Sequence record: KJ190157
DNA from: Escherichia phage vB_EcoS_FFH_1
Reading direction: 5' to 3' (one strand)
Length of the DNA stretch: 64,000 nt
In this document: positions 10,423-21,464 of the stretch, in pieces
Position numbering within the stretch: position 1 is the stretch's first letter
How the letters are laid out: each line of letters starts with the position of its first letter
Notes under the pieces: generated by a model
Databases searched by the model: none
Seen by the model: only the letters and a program-made list of their open reading frames with translations
What the model was told of the DNA's origin: nothing
Program-made: the position numbers and the translations under genes

Positions 10423-10456
10423 AGCCGGGTTGCTAGTCGACCTGGCTTTTATTTTA
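10423..10456 (+). terminator. putative intrinsic terminator after nrdD
   Basis: imperfect hairpin AGCCGGGTTGCTAGTCGACCTGGCT followed by TTTTATTTTATTT. Confidence 0.45.
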
Positions 10457-10457
10457 T

Positions 10458-10486
10458 TTGCTTTCAGCCAAAAATTTATATATAAT
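10458..10486 (+). promoter_or_regulatory. early promoter, PN25-like (TTGCTT-N17-TATAAT + ATAAATTTGAGGAGG)
   Basis: -35 10458-10463, -10 10481-10486; AT-rich upstream tract. Confidence 0.6.
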
Positions 10487-10515: not shown

Positions 10516-10896
10516 ATGACTTTAAAACCGTATATAGTGGAGTCTACGTGTGGCAGTTTCCACCTGGGTGTGGATGATATTGCTGAGGCTGTCTTTGCTG
10601 CCACAGGTGATTACTCTCATATAGGGGGTGCTGGGTACCCCACCGTTATTGGCGATTGGGTGGAAACAAATCTAGATGTGTCGCCTTATAACCCGTATTG
10701 CTTGTTTGATGAAGACAGAGATGAGGTAAAGTGTAATCTTGAATTTGTGTATAATAGAGTATTAAAAGTATACCAACGTAGTCCCGAGGGGTACGGAGAT
10801 ATTACTTGTAGTATTAAACAGTATCTTAAAGATGTATACTCTAGTTTTTCTGACGAAGGCCTAGAAACAGTTGCAGTGGAGTTTAATAATGACTAA
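10516..10896 (+). CDS. hypothetical protein (126 aa)
   Basis: ORF preceded by PN25-like early promoter and GAGGAGG SD. Confidence 0.5.
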   Translation: MTLKPYIVESTCGSFHLGVDDIAEAVFAATGDYSHIGGAGYPTVIGDWVETNLDVSPYNPYCLFDEDRDEVKCNLEFVYNRVLKVYQRSPEGYGDITCSIKQYLKDVYSSFSDEGLETVAVEFNND

Positions 10897-11095
10897 GAAT
10901 GTGAAACACCTTAAATATCGCTTAATCTATAACGGACGTATGGAAACAGAAGATCTGGCCCAATTAGCTATTAATTCTAATGAGGTTATGGTGCGTGCGC
11001 TAGCAATTGAAAAGTTGCGTGCTTCTTATGAAAATCGTGTTATGGAACTAGAGGAGAAACTGTATGGACTTCTTGAATCAGAGTCTAAAAAGTAA
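10871..11095 (+). CDS. hypothetical protein (74 aa)
   Basis: ORF in operon context, overlaps neighbours by a few codons. Confidence 0.35.
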   Translation: MQWSLIMTKNVKHLKYRLIYNGRMETEDLAQLAINSNEVMVRALAIEKLRASYENRVMELEEKLYGLLESESKK

Positions 11096-11258
11096 TCCAG
11101 AAAACATGCTTATTGAGCAATGGAACTTTGGTTATAATGCCGGTATAGCTACTTGTATTGCTAGATTGGATATGCTTATTAAGCAAGAAAAGGTACGCCC
11201 GGAGGAAGCAATTTTACTCCGAAATATTATCGAAGGATTTAAGCAAGGAATCGTATAG
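11064..11258 (+). CDS. hypothetical protein (64 aa)
   Basis: ORF in operon context. Confidence 0.35.
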   Translation: MDFLNQSLKSNPENMLIEQWNFGYNAGIATCIARLDMLIKQEKVRPEEAILLRNIIEGFKQGIV

Positions 11259-12082
11259 TGCGTAGACTAATTATTATTAGCGGTGCGGGTTTGAGTGTTG
11301 AAAGTGGTGTACGAGCTTTTCGTACTGATACTGCTAGTGGTAAAGCATTGTGGGATGATTATAATCTAGAAGAAGTATGTAATATTCATGCCTTTCGTGG
11401 TAATTTTTATCATAAAACCCATATGTTTTACAACAAGCGACGTGAAGAGTTAGAAACTGTTGAACCTAACCTTGCGCATCTTCGTATTGGTGAGTGGTAT
11501 AAGAAATATCCGGGTCAAGTAGTAAATTTGACTACTAACATTGATGACCTTATTGAGCGTGCTGGTGTTCCACATAATGATATTCTCCACATTCATGGAT
11601 ACTTAAAGGAGGTTGTTGTAGCTGATAGCTACAATAGTAGTAATAAACGAATTATTGATGTTGGGTATAACTCTATTGACCCAGAGGATTATAAATGGGT
11701 TAAACCTAACGTTATCTTCTTTGGTGAGCATGCTCCAGCATATACAGAAATGTACAATGTTTTTGATGGTATTACCAGTCAAGATATGATCATTGTGGTT
11801 GGTTGCTCTAACCAAGTAATTAACTTCTACTGGGAATTATTTCCTGTTCTTAATTTGACTGCTGCCAAATTAATGGTAGTTAACTACTACGATAGTGCCC
11901 TAGCGGCAGAACCAGGCTATCAAGGTATGACTCGTAGTGAGATGTACCAGTTGGAAGATCGTGGTATTCCTTACTGGAGTAAAGGTGCGGTAGATGCTTT
12001 TAGTGACCCTGATTTTATTGCTCGTGTGGAAGCCCATTTAGAGGGTAGACCTTACGTGCCAGGGAAACAAATATGTCCATAA
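11258..12082 (+). CDS. Sir2-family (sirtuin-like) NAD-dependent enzyme, lacking the Zn-ribbon cysteines
   Basis: Sirtuin motifs in order: GAGLSVESGVRAFR, TTNIDDL, catalytic LHIHGYL, PNVIFFGEHAP, VVGCSNQV; no CxxC...CxxC; GTG start overlapping upstream stop. Confidence 0.75.
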   Translation: MRRLIIISGAGLSVESGVRAFRTDTASGKALWDDYNLEEVCNIHAFRGNFYHKTHMFYNKRREELETVEPNLAHLRIGEWYKKYPGQVVNLTTNIDDLIERAGVPHNDILHIHGYLKEVVVADSYNSSNKRIIDVGYNSIDPEDYKWVKPNVIFFGEHAPAYTEMYNVFDGITSQDMIIVVGCSNQVINFYWELFPVLNLTAAKLMVVNYYDSALAAEPGYQGMTRSEMYQLEDRGIPYWSKGAVDAFSDPDFIARVEAHLEGRPYVPGKQICP

Positions 12083-12255
12083 TTAAATCTGTGTATACAC
12101 ACCCTGATGATATATTTGTATGGGCGGACGGTAGTTGGTGCTATCGCTGTGAACTGTGGGAAATGGACTATAAATCCGATGACTATGGTGTCATATATGT
12201 TGATACGGCTGAGTATGATACGTTCTTAGAAAGGAACAAAAATGGAAATAAGTAA
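12073..12255 (+). CDS. hypothetical protein (60 aa)
   Basis: short ORF overlapping both neighbours; no motif. Confidence 0.3.
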   Translation: MSIIKSVYTHPDDIFVWADGSWCYRCELWEMDYKSDDYGVIYVDTAEYDTFLERNKNGNK

Positions 12256-12748
12256 TACTCCAATTATTTTTCTAGACATTGATGGGGTGCTCAATTCGAG
12301 CATCTCCCACCATCATGCACCTGATGATGAAAAGATTTTCTTTGGAAGTGACTGGGTTTTCAAACCGCTTCTCAAGGCTTTTCAGGACTTTATTCGTCCT
12401 TCTCCGATAATGATTGTTGGGGTATCCTCATGGTTCTCTGTCAGGAATGAGATGGAGAACGTTCAGATTATGACCGGATTAGGTCTTATCGATCGTTTTC
12501 TTGGTACAACGGATTTTACTGGTGGTGGGCTATCTAGGGGTAATTCTGTTCTTCGCTTCGTTGAAAAGCATAAGCTCAAACATTGGTGTGTACTGGATGA
12601 CGCTGGTGCTATGATGTATCAGTATCCAACGGTTATAGTCAATGGTAGAACTGGAATAAATCTTCAAGATTTAAAAGCTGTTAGCTATATGCTAGAATTT
12701 AGCCCAGATCTTGAAATGTGTAAATCCTTACAACAATTTAAGGTGTAA
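12242..12748 (+). CDS. HAD-superfamily hydrolase-like protein (putative phosphatase/nucleotidase)
   Basis: HAD motif I FLDIDGVLN near N-terminus and motif IV-like WCVLDD; 168 aa. Confidence 0.55.
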   Translation: MEISNTPIIFLDIDGVLNSSISHHHAPDDEKIFFGSDWVFKPLLKAFQDFIRPSPIMIVGVSSWFSVRNEMENVQIMTGLGLIDRFLGTTDFTGGGLSRGNSVLRFVEKHKLKHWCVLDDAGAMMYQYPTVIVNGRTGINLQDLKAVSYMLEFSPDLEMCKSLQQFKV

Positions 12749-12750
12749 AT

Positions 12751-13179
12751 ATGTTCAATAATGTATTCTCTAAAGAAGCTAACCCAATTTTGGTTAACTT
12801 TTGGCGTACTCTCCCAGCTAGCCTGTATAATGAGGCTATTAACTCTTTGAAAATATGGTGTGAGAATAACGAAATCTCCTTTGCTTTTAAAGATGATATT
12901 GATGAGGCTCCCTGTATTGTTTTAATTGTGCAGGTAGAGGAGGGTCTTGAAGAGATTGTGGGCTGGAAAGAGTTAGACGAAATGGGCTTAGTTTTTGCGT
13001 TAAATTATAAACTGTTTATGCCTGCTAAGCATCGCCTTGTTGTTAACTATAAAACTAGTGAATCTCCTGGTTTTCAGGTTAATGAACGTTATGGTTGGTC
13101 TTACTCACCGGAAGAAGTAAATGAGGGGATTCAGAAACTTCGACGTTTCGGGTATATGATCCCGGGTTTAACTGCTTAA
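12751..13179 (+). CDS. hypothetical protein, paralog A of tandem pair
   Basis: 142 aa; shares conserved blocks (SF.F...PCI, MGL..ALN..LF.P, L.R.G..PGL) with the next ORF. Confidence 0.5.
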   Translation: MFNNVFSKEANPILVNFWRTLPASLYNEAINSLKIWCENNEISFAFKDDIDEAPCIVLIVQVEEGLEEIVGWKELDEMGLVFALNYKLFMPAKHRLVVNYKTSESPGFQVNERYGWSYSPEEVNEGIQKLRRFGYMIPGLTA

Positions 13180-13188
13180 GGAGGCAGG

Positions 13189-13581
13189 ATGGAACAAGTA
13201 TATTGGCGTCAGATTGACCCTAGTTTGGTGAAACGTGCGGAGAAGCTGCTACAACGTTGGTTGGGGGTAAGGCAAGCCTCCTTCTCTTTTCCGGAGCAGC
13301 AAACGGATGATCCATGCATTGGCGTTTTCCTGTCTGGATATGCCGGGGAATGGGAGATGGATTGGAATGAATTGTCCGCTATGGGTTTAATTGTTGCCCT
13401 AAATTTCTCTTTGTTCCATCCACGTGGTTTGGCCATATGTCGTGTGCCTGATGACGGTTGTTCGCCCCATCTTTTACAGGTGGAAGATGATATTTGGGAG
13501 TACACTCCAGATATTCTCAAAGAAGCTAAAGAACAATTAAACCGTGTTGGGATTTATGTTCCAGGCCTAAATGATGAATGA
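13189..13581 (+). CDS. hypothetical protein, paralog B of tandem pair
   Basis: 130 aa; AGGAGG SD; homologous to 12751..13179; followed by intrinsic terminator. Confidence 0.5.
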   Translation: MEQVYWRQIDPSLVKRAEKLLQRWLGVRQASFSFPEQQTDDPCIGVFLSGYAGEWEMDWNELSAMGLIVALNFSLFHPRGLAICRVPDDGCSPHLLQVEDDIWEYTPDILKEAKEQLNRVGIYVPGLNDE

Positions 13582-13605
13582 TTTTTACTAGCTGAACTCT
13601 GATTA

Positions 13606-13628
13606 CCGAGTCAAAATGACTCGGTTTT
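13606..13628 (+). terminator. intrinsic terminator after paralog B
   Basis: CCGAGTCA-AAA-TGACTCGG 8-bp stem followed by TTTT. Confidence 0.65.
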
Positions 13629-13672
13629 ATCCGTACTCAAGACCAATGATAGCACCATCCGGAAAATTTTAC

Positions 13673-13701
13673 TTGCAGGATGCCCAAAATCTTGATATAA
13701 T
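13673..13701 (+). promoter_or_regulatory. strong sigma70-type promoter TTGCAG-N17-TATAAT with TGn extended -10, no ORF downstream
   Basis: -35 13673-13678, TGA 13693-13695, -10 13696-13701. Confidence 0.5.
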
Positions 13702-14193
13702 ATTTATATTGAGAGACATTAGTAAAAATTGATTTTGCTAATTTTTCTTGTTTACAATCCGCGATACGGAACAGTTAGGCTGCCCCATTAAGGGTTGTTT
13801 TAACTATTACTAGTGTTTATATTGCATTAGTTAATCTTCAATTAAGTGATCTGTGTACCCTGAATTCGGAAAGGTAAATCCAAACCGTGCATATTTAGCT
13901 CGTTATATAGGCAGAGCTTTATATGGGGGTGCGAACGAAAAGAGCAGCGAATGGCGGCACGTACAGTAGTCACCTACCAATAGGATAGTGAGGACAAATA
14001 GAATCGGCTTAGCGGCCAATGACCTAGGTTCTATTCTGTATATGAGCGAAGAGAGCACAGCACTGAGATATGATAACTTATTCATATTGTTTGATGATAA
14101 TTGATGTTTACGTAAATAGTAGTAATAGTTGTTCTATTCTTTCTGAATAGTCCTAAAGAAAAGATTTCTATTAATCAACACAGGAGTATTGTT

Positions 14194-19510: not shown

Positions 19511-20482
19511 ATGACTAATGTAAAAAACTTTATTAAACGTTGCCAAGAAGCGTACTACCAGGGAATGTCTTTAATCTCTGACGAAGAATATGATCGTCTG
19601 ATTAAAAGATTTCCGTTAGAAGAAGAGATCGGTCCTAAGGGCGATATTCCACATCTGTATCGTATGTATTCTTTACAGAAAGTTTATTATAATCGTGGAG
19701 ATAAACCTCCGTTTAACCCATTAGGTCAGGTAGAAACTGATAAGTTAGATGGTTGTGCGATTTCTCTGCTATATATTAATGGCGAATTTGTTCAAGCACT
19801 AACTCGTGGTAATGGTATTCTAGGGAATGATGTCACAAGCAACGTAAGATTGCTGAACATTCCTAAAAAGATTTCCCAAAAAGTACCTACTCAAATCACT
19901 GGTGAAGTTCTAATTACAAAAGAAGTAGAAAATAAACGTAACTTTGCCTCTGGTGCTATTAACCTCAAAGATAGTGATGATTTCGTACAACGTATCGGGG
20001 AAGGTGGTTTAATCTTTGTTGCATATGGTATCCAGTGTTCTGCTGAATCTGTAGGTATTACAGAAGCATATTTAAAAGATATGCTTTGGCTAGAGAATGA
20101 GAACTTCTTAACAGTTGTTAATGTACGTTCCTTCTTTAAATGGATTCCGACGGACGGTAAAGTTGTTCGTATTAATGACAACAACAAATTCTTCCGCGAA
20201 GGCTGGACTAATAAATTCCCTCGCGGGGCGTTCGCTATTAAAGAGGATGAAGAAGGCGAGATTACAACTCTTACTAAAGTTGAATGGCAGGTAGGGGCTT
20301 CTGGTAAAGTAACTCCAGTTGGTTATTTCGAACCGGTAATTATTGATGATGCTACAATTGTTAAAGCGACTCTTAATAACGTTGATTATATTAACTCTCT
20401 CTATCTAGAGATCGGTTGCCAGATTCGAGTGATTCGTGCTGGTGGTGTAATCCCGTGTATAGTAGAGCGAGTATACGATTAA
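19511..20482 (+). CDS. lig: NAD-dependent DNA ligase, adenylation-domain subunit (N-terminal half of a split LigA)
   Basis: KxDG adenylation motif TDKLDGCA; 323 aa ending before Zn-finger/HhH/BRCT region; PN25-like promoter upstream. Confidence 0.8.
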   Translation: MTNVKNFIKRCQEAYYQGMSLISDEEYDRLIKRFPLEEEIGPKGDIPHLYRMYSLQKVYYNRGDKPPFNPLGQVETDKLDGCAISLLYINGEFVQALTRGNGILGNDVTSNVRLLNIPKKISQKVPTQITGEVLITKEVENKRNFASGAINLKDSDDFVQRIGEGGLIFVAYGIQCSAESVGITEAYLKDMLWLENENFLTVVNVRSFFKWIPTDGKVVRINDNNKFFREGWTNKFPRGAFAIKEDEEGEITTLTKVEWQVGASGKVTPVGYFEPVIIDDATIVKATLNNVDYINSLYLEIGCQIRVIRAGGVIPCIVERVYD

Positions 20483-20654: not shown

Positions 20655-20684
20655 ATTTATATAAATTGATAAGGAAGAAATTTG

Positions 20685-21464
20685 ATGAAAATCGAAATTC
20701 CAACACAATGTCCCTCTTGTGGTTCTAAGCTAGATCTTGTCAACGGACAATTATTCTGTCGTAATAAGTCCAACTGTCCAGCGCAATCAAGCAAGTTAAT
20801 TGAGAACTTCTGTTCAAAAATGAAGTTAAAGGGCTTTGGCCCAAAAACTATTGAGAAGCTGGAGCTGACGAAGATTTCAGAACTATTTTACCTAACCGAA
20901 GAAGATTTGGTTAGAGTCGTGGGTAGCAAGGTTGCCGCTAAGTTAATTAGCGAATTAAATACTAAAGTTCGCGGAGACATTGACTTTGGTTCAGTTCTCG
21001 GTTCTTTAGGAATCCCTCTAATTGGAGAGGTTGCAGCAAAGAAATTATCCCAAAATTGCACTAGCTTCCACGATGTGAAGGCTGACGGCAAGGCTGGAGA
21101 AAATTACAAAGCCTGGCTAAATTCCCCACAAGGCAAGGATGTTATTGAACTACCGTGGAAATTTTCAACTGGTATTAAGGGCACTAAAGCTGACGTCATC
21201 ATTACAGATGAATTAGTTGCCCAGCCAAATGGAATCGCGGTATGTATTACCGGATCTTTGCAAGATTTTGCAAATCGAACGGATGCAACAAACTATTTAG
21301 AAGGTCTAGGGTATACGGTTAAGAAATCCGTTACTAAAGACGTCAAATACCTAATCTGTGAGGATGAATCAAAACGTTCTTCCTCATCTTATAAGAAAGC
21401 CGAAACGAATGGGATAGAAATCCTGTCGATTAAAGAACTATTGGAGAAAAATAATAATGTCTAA
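20685..21464 (+). CDS. lig: NAD-dependent DNA ligase, C-terminal subunit (Zn finger, HhH, BRCT-like)
   Basis: Four-Cys finger CPSCGSKL...CRNKSNCP, helix-hairpin-helix-like GFGPKTIEKL, BRCT-like C-terminus; own promoters in the 200-bp spacer. Confidence 0.75.
   Translation: MKIEIPTQCPSCGSKLDLVNGQLFCRNKSNCPAQSSKLIENFCSKMKLKGFGPKTIEKLELTKISELFYLTEEDLVRVVGSKVAAKLISELNTKVRGDIDFGSVLGSLGIPLIGEVAAKKLSQNCTSFHDVKADGKAGENYKAWLNSPQGKDVIELPWKFSTGIKGTKADVIITDELVAQPNGIAVCITGSLQDFANRTDATNYLEGLGYTVKKSVTKDVKYLICEDESKRSSSSYKKAETNGIEILSIKELLEKNNNV

Follow-up and report, generated by a model that had tools for sequence, protein, structure and literature searches.

Introduction

The nicotinamide adenine dinucleotide (NAD)-dependent protein deacylase CobB of E. 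coli (PDB 1S5P, 6RXJ) is the best match, by sequence (E=3e-18) and by Foldseek (2e-17), to a Sir2/CobB-like sirtuin encoded in a 64,000-nucleotide stretch of DNA from Escherichia phage vB_EcoS_FFH_1 (sequence record KJ190157; below, "the window" means this whole stretch). Two further canonical sirtuins close to the phage protein in structure, human SIRT5 and Sir2Af1 of Archaeoglobus, are of the class III desuccinylase type; both bind zinc through four cysteines and have no phage context. A second group of relatives, the defence SIR2 NADases (ThsA, DSR1/2, Sir2-HerA, SPARSA and Avs5), has in common with the window protein a Rossmann-type Sir2 core without a zinc ribbon.

Sirtuins of phages have been described in two studies. 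A CobB-like sirtuin of Vibrio phages phiSt2, phiGrn1 and KVP40 also lacks zinc ligands; the Vibrio-phage Sir2/CobB was modelled, the zinc ligand was found missing there and in KVP40, T5 was named as a sirtuin carrier, and activation of acetyl-CoA synthetase was predicted (Skliros et al. 2016, PMC5107563). These Vibrio phages are of a different phage family, and the gene has a different neighbourhood there; homologues from Vibrio jumbo phages are ~40% identical to the window sirtuin. More recently, most viral sirtuins were assigned to a distinct clade with a proposed role in RNA repair, and T5-like phage SP15, in which the sirtuin lies beside a 'Swiss-army-knife' HAD phosphatase, was taken as the type of one neighbourhood (Iyer et al. 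2022, section 3.7.3, PMC9503650); the function assigned to the clade in that work is a prediction. SP15 carries the same locus as the window, consisting of Sir2, an open reading frame (ORF) of 60 amino acids, HAD and two DUF7415 genes, and the HAD proteins are 97.6% identical.

The gene, its Sir2 assignment, the missing zinc site and the neighbourhood were therefore all on record before this analysis. The source phage is a Tequintavirus (T5-like), and the sirtuin gene is 93-96% identical in DNA to that of ~200 T5-like phages, Salmonella phage oldekolle being closest. Nearly all of these records label it 'Sir2-like protein' or 'NAD-dependent deacetylase, SIR2 family', and the 2005-era GenBank record of phage T5 (AY587007) reads 'cobb, putative transferase, IPR003000 Sir2'. 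A translated search found homologues in 1007 phage records, among them T5-like, rV5-like, Mydovirus, phi92-like and 7-11 phages and jumbo phages of Erwinia, Vibrio and Xanthomonas. In the full-text literature we found no functional or experimental study of any T5-type sirtuin. Here we compare the window protein with these systems and conclude that it has the canonical sirtuin fold, is class III-like and groups with CobB, SIRT5 and Sir2Af1, and is very probably not an NAD-depleting effector. As to function, we tentatively favour an NAD-dependent lysine deacylase, probably directed at acidic acyl groups, that would act on proteins of the host or the phage in the early phase of infection.

Results

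The phage protein has a canonical sirtuin fold and lacks the zinc cysteines

The original prediction recognized this ORF as Sir2-like by an ordered set of sirtuin motifs, and all of them are present and in order (Table 1), with TTNIDDL at residues 92-98, PNVIFFGE at residues 150-157 and VVGCS at residues 180-184. The suggested comparison with Pfam SIR2 (PF02146) gave a match of 89.2 bits, against a cut-off of 24 (E=4e-25), that covers nearly the full profile (positions 1-178 of 180), and PHROG 2162 'Sir2' matched with E=8e-121. The AlphaFold model of the protein (predicted local distance difference test score, pLDDT, 86; predicted template modelling score, pTM, 0.85) superposes on CobB with a template modelling (TM) score of 0.84. 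It shows a Rossmann NAD-binding fold with the GAGxS loop and the F-R cofactor loop, together with the catalytic His (HG) and the Asn and Asp of the TQNxD motif, in which the Gln is Thr93.

To assess conservation, we aligned 25 phage homologues that are 55-85% identical. Approximately 60 positions are invariant down to 55% identity, including all catalytic residues; GAG, F21/R22, N94/D96, H113-G114, F154-F155-x-E157, G182/S184 and N209 belong to this set. The invariant set amounts to a complete NAD-binding and nicotinamide-cleavage apparatus, and the sirtuin is apparently an active NAD-using enzyme.

The four-cysteine zinc ribbon (CxxC...CxxC) is missing, as had been claimed for this ORF. The whole protein has cysteines only at C41, C183 and C273 and none in residues 115-148, which correspond to the CobB zinc module; in a residue-level alignment to E. 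coli CobB, the first zinc ligand, C155, is replaced by Val121, and opposite the second knuckle (CHCC) the alignment has a gap. AlphaFold models the same residues as three beta strands (pLDDT 87-94), and all 25 phage homologues in the alignment, the most distant being ~55% identical, lack the zinc cysteines. Relative to canonical sirtuins, the window protein thus differs in three respects: the zinc cysteines are gone, the Gln of TQNxD is Thr, and V-Y-P is V-I-N-F.

The residues that define class III sirtuins are retained. Y58/R61 align with CobB Y92/R95, the pair by which class III enzymes recognize acidic acyl groups, and C41 aligns with A76, a small residue of the pocket, all three being invariant; we take SIRT5 Ala86 to be the residue that matches CobB Ala76 and window Cys41. 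Window I95 aligns with CobB I131, and PDB titles name CobB A76, Y92, I131, V162 and V187 as engineered acyl-selectivity positions. The hydrophobic residues of the lysine tunnel are also kept in the alignment.

Comparison with CobB as a whole shows that the two proteins share GAG, FR, NxD, the catalytic His, the FGE loop and the Y92/R95 pair. In contrast, the window sirtuin is only ~25% identical to CobB, lacks its zinc cysteines, has TTN instead of TQN and VINF instead of VYP, and carries a 60-residue C-terminal extension. Scores against the NCBIfam CobB equivalog models are far below their cut-offs (NF040867, 89.6 versus 320 bits; NF001753, 99.5 versus 243 bits), and the window sirtuin is therefore not a CobB orthologue. 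A profile search for a solved sirtuin of the phage branch found none, and CobB stayed the best match.

The nearest structures are deacylases. The top 50 Foldseek matches are canonical sirtuins only, CobB first, followed by SIRT5 and Sir2Af1. In a structure comparison, Sir2Af1 reached a value of 21.2 and PfSir2A, SIRT1, SIRT2, SIRT4, Hst2 and ySir2 reached 16-19, compared with 14.7 for SirTM, 14.4 for PsSIR2, 12.7 for Sir2-HerA, 12.3 for ThsA and 9.4-9.7 for Avs5. The original prediction, which had called for a comparison with ThsA and DSR Sir2 domains, is borne out in the Rossmann NAD fold and not supported in the proposed affinity to defence proteins, as ThsA and the other defence Sir2 structures lie well below the deacylases.

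Loss of the zinc site is derived in the phage branch

Searched exhaustively, a set of 1.8 billion representative proteins yielded 2910 relatives. The closest of these are zinc-less with TTN, whereas more distant ones have four cysteines and TQN. FYxxRR and the ribbon motif (D/N)IGY are common to many zinc-less and four-cysteine relatives, and V-C-N is also common to the aligned four-cysteine set. A scan of bacterial genomes placed the four-cysteine members on chromosomes, in Helicobacter (one contig labelled H. pylori), Arcobacter, Sulfurimonas and Sulfurovum, and in Mycoplasma-like bacteria, Verrucomicrobiota, Rhodobacterales and others. These chromosomal proteins are ~35-47% identical to the window protein and share with it V-C-N, FYxxRR, (D/N)IGY and GTSGxV(I/L) without Y-P; they differ in being cellular genes that keep CxxC...CxxC and TQN. 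To our knowledge, no chromosomal four-cysteine sirtuin of this subfamily has been characterized.

Because the closest cellular relatives are four-cysteine chromosomal sirtuins, the loss of zinc is derived in the phage branch. The phage protein accordingly represents a derived branch of a cellular sirtuin subfamily that kept a ribbon-shaped module and changed TQN to TTN. We had considered the 'IGY' motif as a phage-specific mark and rejected it, since cellular four-cysteine relatives also carry IGY. When longer relatives (300-530 amino acids) were scanned for fused domains, only tandem Sir2, WG repeats and unannotated extensions were found.

A deacylase is the favoured reading of the sirtuin

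Deacylation is the function we favour, at somewhat less than even confidence, on the basis of the intact deacylase active site, the class III pocket residues, the nearest structures and the cellular-sirtuin ancestry. According to this proposal, the enzyme would work early in infection, removing acyl groups, probably acidic ones such as succinyl, malonyl or glutaryl, from lysines in proteins of the host or the phage in an NAD+-dependent reaction. His113 would activate the ribose hydroxyl, the acyl oxygen would attack C1' of the nicotinamide ribose, and the products would be nicotinamide, O-acyl-ADP-ribose and free lysine. Host enzymes inhibited by acylation would in this way be reset to the benefit of the phage, and the adjoining capless HAD phosphatase may likewise erase modifications of macromolecules.

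Several points weigh against a deacylase. The role is ascribed to the phage branch by comparison of sequences and models. Features of the peptide cleft are altered, the zinc cysteines being lost, V-Y-P changed to V-I-N-F and the Gln of TQNxD changed to Thr, and the NCBIfam CobB models score far below cut-off (99 versus 243 bits), so that the protein is not a CobB orthologue. In two further phage lineages, Sir2 lies inside or adjoins an RNA-repair cassette, and the Pfam family of the HAD partner in T5 takes its name from RNA repair. Finally, the Tyr/Arg pair could hold a phosphate as well as a carboxylate.

Conserved neighbours and the possibility of an RNA substrate

The alternative that survives best is RNA-end healing, in which ADP-ribose from NAD+ would be moved to an RNA 2'-phosphate by a sirtuin-fold analogue of Tpt1/KptA (Iyer, Burroughs, Anantharaman, Aravind 2022). 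The HAD phosphatase would trim terminal phosphates or process the by-product, and tRNAs cut by host anticodon nucleases would be repaired. We regard this proposal as possible but less likely than deacylation. The RNA 2'-phosphotransferase Tpt1/KptA provides a possible analogy of reaction, in which NAD+ removes an anionic group by way of an ADP-ribosyl intermediate and a 1'',2''-cyclic product is formed, although its fold, that of the ADP-ribosyltransferase (ART) superfamily, is unrelated. The two-step chemistry of sirtuins resembles that of Tpt1, which speaks for an RNA substrate; on the other hand, sirtuins are not known to use RNA as a substrate.

Gene neighbourhoods are one argument for RNA. 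The layout of the window operon is that of SP15, the type example (PMC9503650, section 3.7.3), and the conserved neighbourhood with an RNA-end-processing gene (HAD_SAK_2) that marks the clade of Iyer et al. 2022 is present here, the partner gene matching Pfam HAD_SAK_2 with E=4e-20. HAD_SAK_2 and DUF7415 genes lie 3' of the sirtuin in 22 of 22 Tequintavirus loci, in 4 of 4 Epseptimavirus-like loci and in Pectobacterium phage My1. In KPP2018 the Sir2 and HAD coding sequences (CDS) overlap by 20 nucleotides, and two divergent T5-like contigs have the reversed order nrdD, HAD_SAK_2, small ORFs, Sir2, which indicates that the pairing survives rearrangement. On the reversed-order contigs few neighbours were called, and no Pfam family is recorded for them, DUF7415 included.

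More distant phages give a mixed picture. In Mydovirus/rV5-like phages, Sir2 homologues 58-60% identical to the window protein lie in a tight run of Metallophos, T4-type RNA ligase, cREC, AAA_33 kinase, Sir2 and ATP-dependent DNA ligase, an arrangement that favours a link to RNA ends. However, the myovirus cassettes may stem from one ancestral arrangement and not from repeated selection, and phi92/ECO340P2-like phages keep the RNA-repair cassette intact with Sir2 ~30 kb away on the same contigs. Klebsiella T5-like phages retain Sir2 and DUF7415 and lack HAD, and 7-11-like phages have no HAD or RNA-repair neighbours at Sir2. Genes for an RNA ligase, a polynucleotide kinase or a 2H protein were likewise not seen, either in the window operon or in the annotation of the matching 46 kb of oldekolle.

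The HAD partner is equivocal. Its motif residues DxDGV, SS and DD are invariant, and its model (pLDDT 94) is a capless HAD with MDP-1 and the protein phosphatases SCP1/FCP1/UBLCP1 as closest structures; T4 Pnkp is outside the top 60 structural matches, and a sequence search of solved structures with the HAD protein gave nothing significant. The 'RNA repair' label of HAD_SAK_2 is itself a prediction, and the structure is nearest to protein and sugar-phosphate phosphatases. Capless HADs tend toward macromolecular substrates, and this one fits either RNA or protein.

Within the sirtuin itself, invariant Y58/R61/R62 might grip a phosphate and the substrate cleft is altered in the phage branch, both of which would suit RNA; the retention of the hydrophobic lysine-tunnel residues would not. 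The specific idea that the phage branch was re-tooled through zinc loss, TTN and VINF for the use of NAD+ on a nucleic-acid phosphate, with the HAD phosphatase assisting in the healing of tRNAs, is in our view possible but less likely than not.

The gene pair is accessory and sirtuin alleles are exchanged

Escherichia phage DT57C encodes a 'defective Sir2' of 90 amino acids at 2354-2626 of its locus, equivalent to 11258-12748 of the window. This protein is a chimera of Sir2 residues ~172-212 and HAD residues ~131-168, and DT57C is a natural double knock-out of sirtuin and HAD phosphatase. The Sir2-HAD pair is consequently accessory, and dispensable at least in DT57C.

Comparison with a HildyBeyeler-like contig revealed a sharp local divergence. 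Amino acid identity is 98% for nrdD, 89-91% for the upstream small ORFs, 90% for HAD and 95% for the origin-binding protein, and it falls to 51% for Sir2; yet Sir2 of My1, a far more distant phage, is 61% identical to the window sirtuin. We conclude that two deep alleles have been exchanged at this locus. One of them has an insert of ~26 amino acids in the helical small domain. Allele swapping this sharp, between T5-like phages that are otherwise nearly identical, would be in keeping with a role at the interface of host and phage.

Other explanations

An enzyme of small NAD- or ADP-ribose-derived molecules is unlikely. The sirtuin and the HAD phosphatase would here process NAD-derived signals or toxic ADP-ribose phosphates and not macromolecules. 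In Mydovirus, Sir2 is preceded at a distance of ~5 kb by NAPRTase and phosphoribosyl pyrophosphate (PRPP) synthetase genes and followed, again at ~5 kb, by a NADAR gene, and in Serratia phage ChuuTotoro (8001-11217) the HAD_SAK_2 gene overlaps that of PRPP synthetase, with NAPRTase next. These arrangements raise a possible NAD/ADP-ribose theme beside the RNA-repair theme, but the NAD genes are kilobases from Sir2, and the T5 operon showed no gene for NAD salvage. Furthermore, the capless HAD fold suggests a large substrate, and canonical sirtuins require an acyl or other nucleophile acceptor.

It is quite unlikely that the protein is a protein or DNA mono-ADP-ribosyltransferase of the SirTM class. 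SirTM enzymes replace the catalytic His, whereas His113 is kept; the operon has no macrodomain, and the resemblance to deacylases is much greater.

The original prediction had proposed that the protein, being of the zinc-less type found in bacterial immune systems, depletes host NAD pools or acts as a decoy or mimic of a host defence Sir2. The zinc ribbon is indeed missing, as in defence Sir2 domains, and the predicted early expression would suit such a role. The claimed kinship with defence NADases, however, finds no support: PADLOC, searched as the defence-system profile set, matched no Sir2 model and gave one chance match (E=0.06) to a restriction enzyme, the defence structures fall well below the canonical deacylases that are nearest in fold, and none is in the Foldseek top 50. 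The protein is single-domain, and its neighbours include no SLOG, HerA, pAgo/APAZ, TIR or STAND partner. In addition, an NAD-dependent DNA ligase, split between two ORFs (19511-20482, adenylation and OB; 20682-21464, SAM, HhH and BRCT), is encoded in the window, so that the phage depends on NAD and its depletion would block the phage's own replication. We therefore consider an effector or decoy very unlikely, and of the initial interpretation we keep a Sir2 protein without zinc ribbon and give up the link to defence.

A decaying or non-functional remnant, for which the lost zinc site and the deletion of the gene in DT57C might be cited, is extremely unlikely given ~60 invariant positions including the catalytic residues, homologues down to 55% identity, ~1000 phage genomes and a confident AlphaFold model.

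The operon and adjoining sequences

The boundaries of the unit were set by alignment to the annotated features of T5 (Table 1). The unit comprises nine ORFs between two terminators, and the sequence 5' of position 10516 shows 94% identity to the T5 segment that contains an annotated terminator and the 'putative early promoter T5P31'. A generic promoter scan performed at chance level (12 found versus 11.9 expected) and did not detect the T5P31 homologue; the promoter was therefore placed by alignment to T5. By homology to T5, the sirtuin would be an early gene co-transcribed with the capless HAD phosphatase, in agreement with the earlier assignment to the early operon of a virulent phage, for which the T5P31-like promoter and the T5 terminator are the evidence. 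The GTG start of the sirtuin and the TAG of the preceding ORF share one base. Rfam at the gathering threshold and a tRNA scan gave no matches in the whole window, and G+C content over 8.5-15 kb (0.36-0.44) was unremarkable, with no mark of recent foreign origin.

Table 1. Coordinates of the sirtuin gene, its motifs and the surrounding putative early unit in the window.
Feature	Position	Strand	Remarks
Intrinsic terminator after nrdD	10423..10447	+	Upstream unit boundary
Promoter-like TTGCTT-17 nucleotides-TATAAT	10458..10486	+	Homologous to T5 'putative early promoter T5P31'
Three small upstream ORFs (126, 74 and 64 amino acids)	10516..11258	+	PHROGs of unknown function
Shine-Dalgarno AAGGA	11245..11249	+	8 nucleotides 5' of GTG; read directly from the sequence
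Sir2/CobB-like sirtuin CDS	11258..12082	+	274 amino acids; GTG start; without zinc cysteines
NAD-binding GAGLSVESGVRAFR (residues 9-22)	11282..11323	+	G9, A10, G11, S13, S16, G17, F21 and R22 invariant
Cys41	11378..11380	+	Invariant; aligned with CobB Ala76, an acyl-pocket residue
Y58-N-K-R61-R62, class III sirtuin Tyr-x-x-Arg motif	11429..11443	+	Corresponds to CobB Y92/R95; invariant
TTNIDD (residues 92-97)	11531..11548	+	Asn94 and Asp96 invariant; canonical Gln replaced by Thr93 throughout the phage branch
Catalytic His113-Gly114	11594..11599	+	His113 aligned with CobB His147
Small-module segment in place of zinc ribbon (residues 115-148)	11600..11701	+	No Cys; conserved D(I/V)GY
KPNVIFFGE (residues 149-157), substrate/NAD loop	11702..11728	+	Identical to canonical sirtuins
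VVGCSNQVINF (residues 180-190)	11795..11827	+	GxS kept; canonical V-Y-P substrate loop replaced by V-I-N-F
60-amino-acid ORF (phrog_5116) between Sir2 and HAD	12073..12255	+	Presence varies
Capless HAD phosphatase, Pfam HAD_SAK_2 (E=4e-20)	12242..12748	+	168 amino acids; 160 nucleotides 3' of sirtuin
DUF7415 protein, first of two tandem paralogues	12751..13179	+	
DUF7415 protein, second tandem paralogue	13189..13581	+	
Hairpin and T-run, unit end	~13606..13624	+	Homologous to the annotated terminator of T5

Sir2 and HAD are separated by a spacer of 160 nucleotides in the window and of 322 nucleotides in T5, and by none in KPP2018-type phages; the 60-amino-acid ORF is missing where the two CDS overlap. 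In all T5-like lineages that were checked, those without HAD included, the DUF7415 paralogues, with two repeats each, lie 3' of the sirtuin. According to the T5 record, the DUF7415 genes are similar to ORF298c of Aeromonas phage Aeh1, which is near the Aeh1 HAD homologue ORF302c.

RefSeq calls the phosphatase at 12242-12748 of the window 'Sir2 (NAD-dependent deacetylase)', and the source of this label is PHROG 18062. The match of this 92-position profile is to the C-terminus of HAD (E=6e-58), with a weak one to Sir2 residues 169-216. This PHROG was apparently built from DT57C-like chimeras, and the 'Sir2' label on the HAD gene is a propagating annotation error.

Downstream of the operon, ~600 nucleotides of non-coding sequence (13582-14193) separate it from the gene for the origin-binding protein. 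This stretch is 98% identical to T5, with a run of 300 alignment columns that holds one mismatch, and its identity exceeds the protein identity of its neighbours to T5 (sirtuin, 93%; DUF7415, 92-95%). It contains the annotated T5 promoter P32 and has no Rfam or tRNA match, and in SP15 an HNH endonuclease gene is inserted at the equivalent stretch. Possible roles for it are those of a replication origin and of a regulatory RNA.

Discussion

Approximately 1000 sequenced phages carry this sirtuin, among them the model phage T5 and many that serve in biocontrol or therapy, and a sirtuin without structural zinc is a natural test of whether the canonical fold works without it. If the RNA-substrate proposal were true, RNA would for the first time be the substrate of a sirtuin, and the protein would represent a new chemistry of the sirtuin fold and a new counter-defence module of phages. 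If the deacylase that we favour is correct, phages would reset host protein acylation during takeover.

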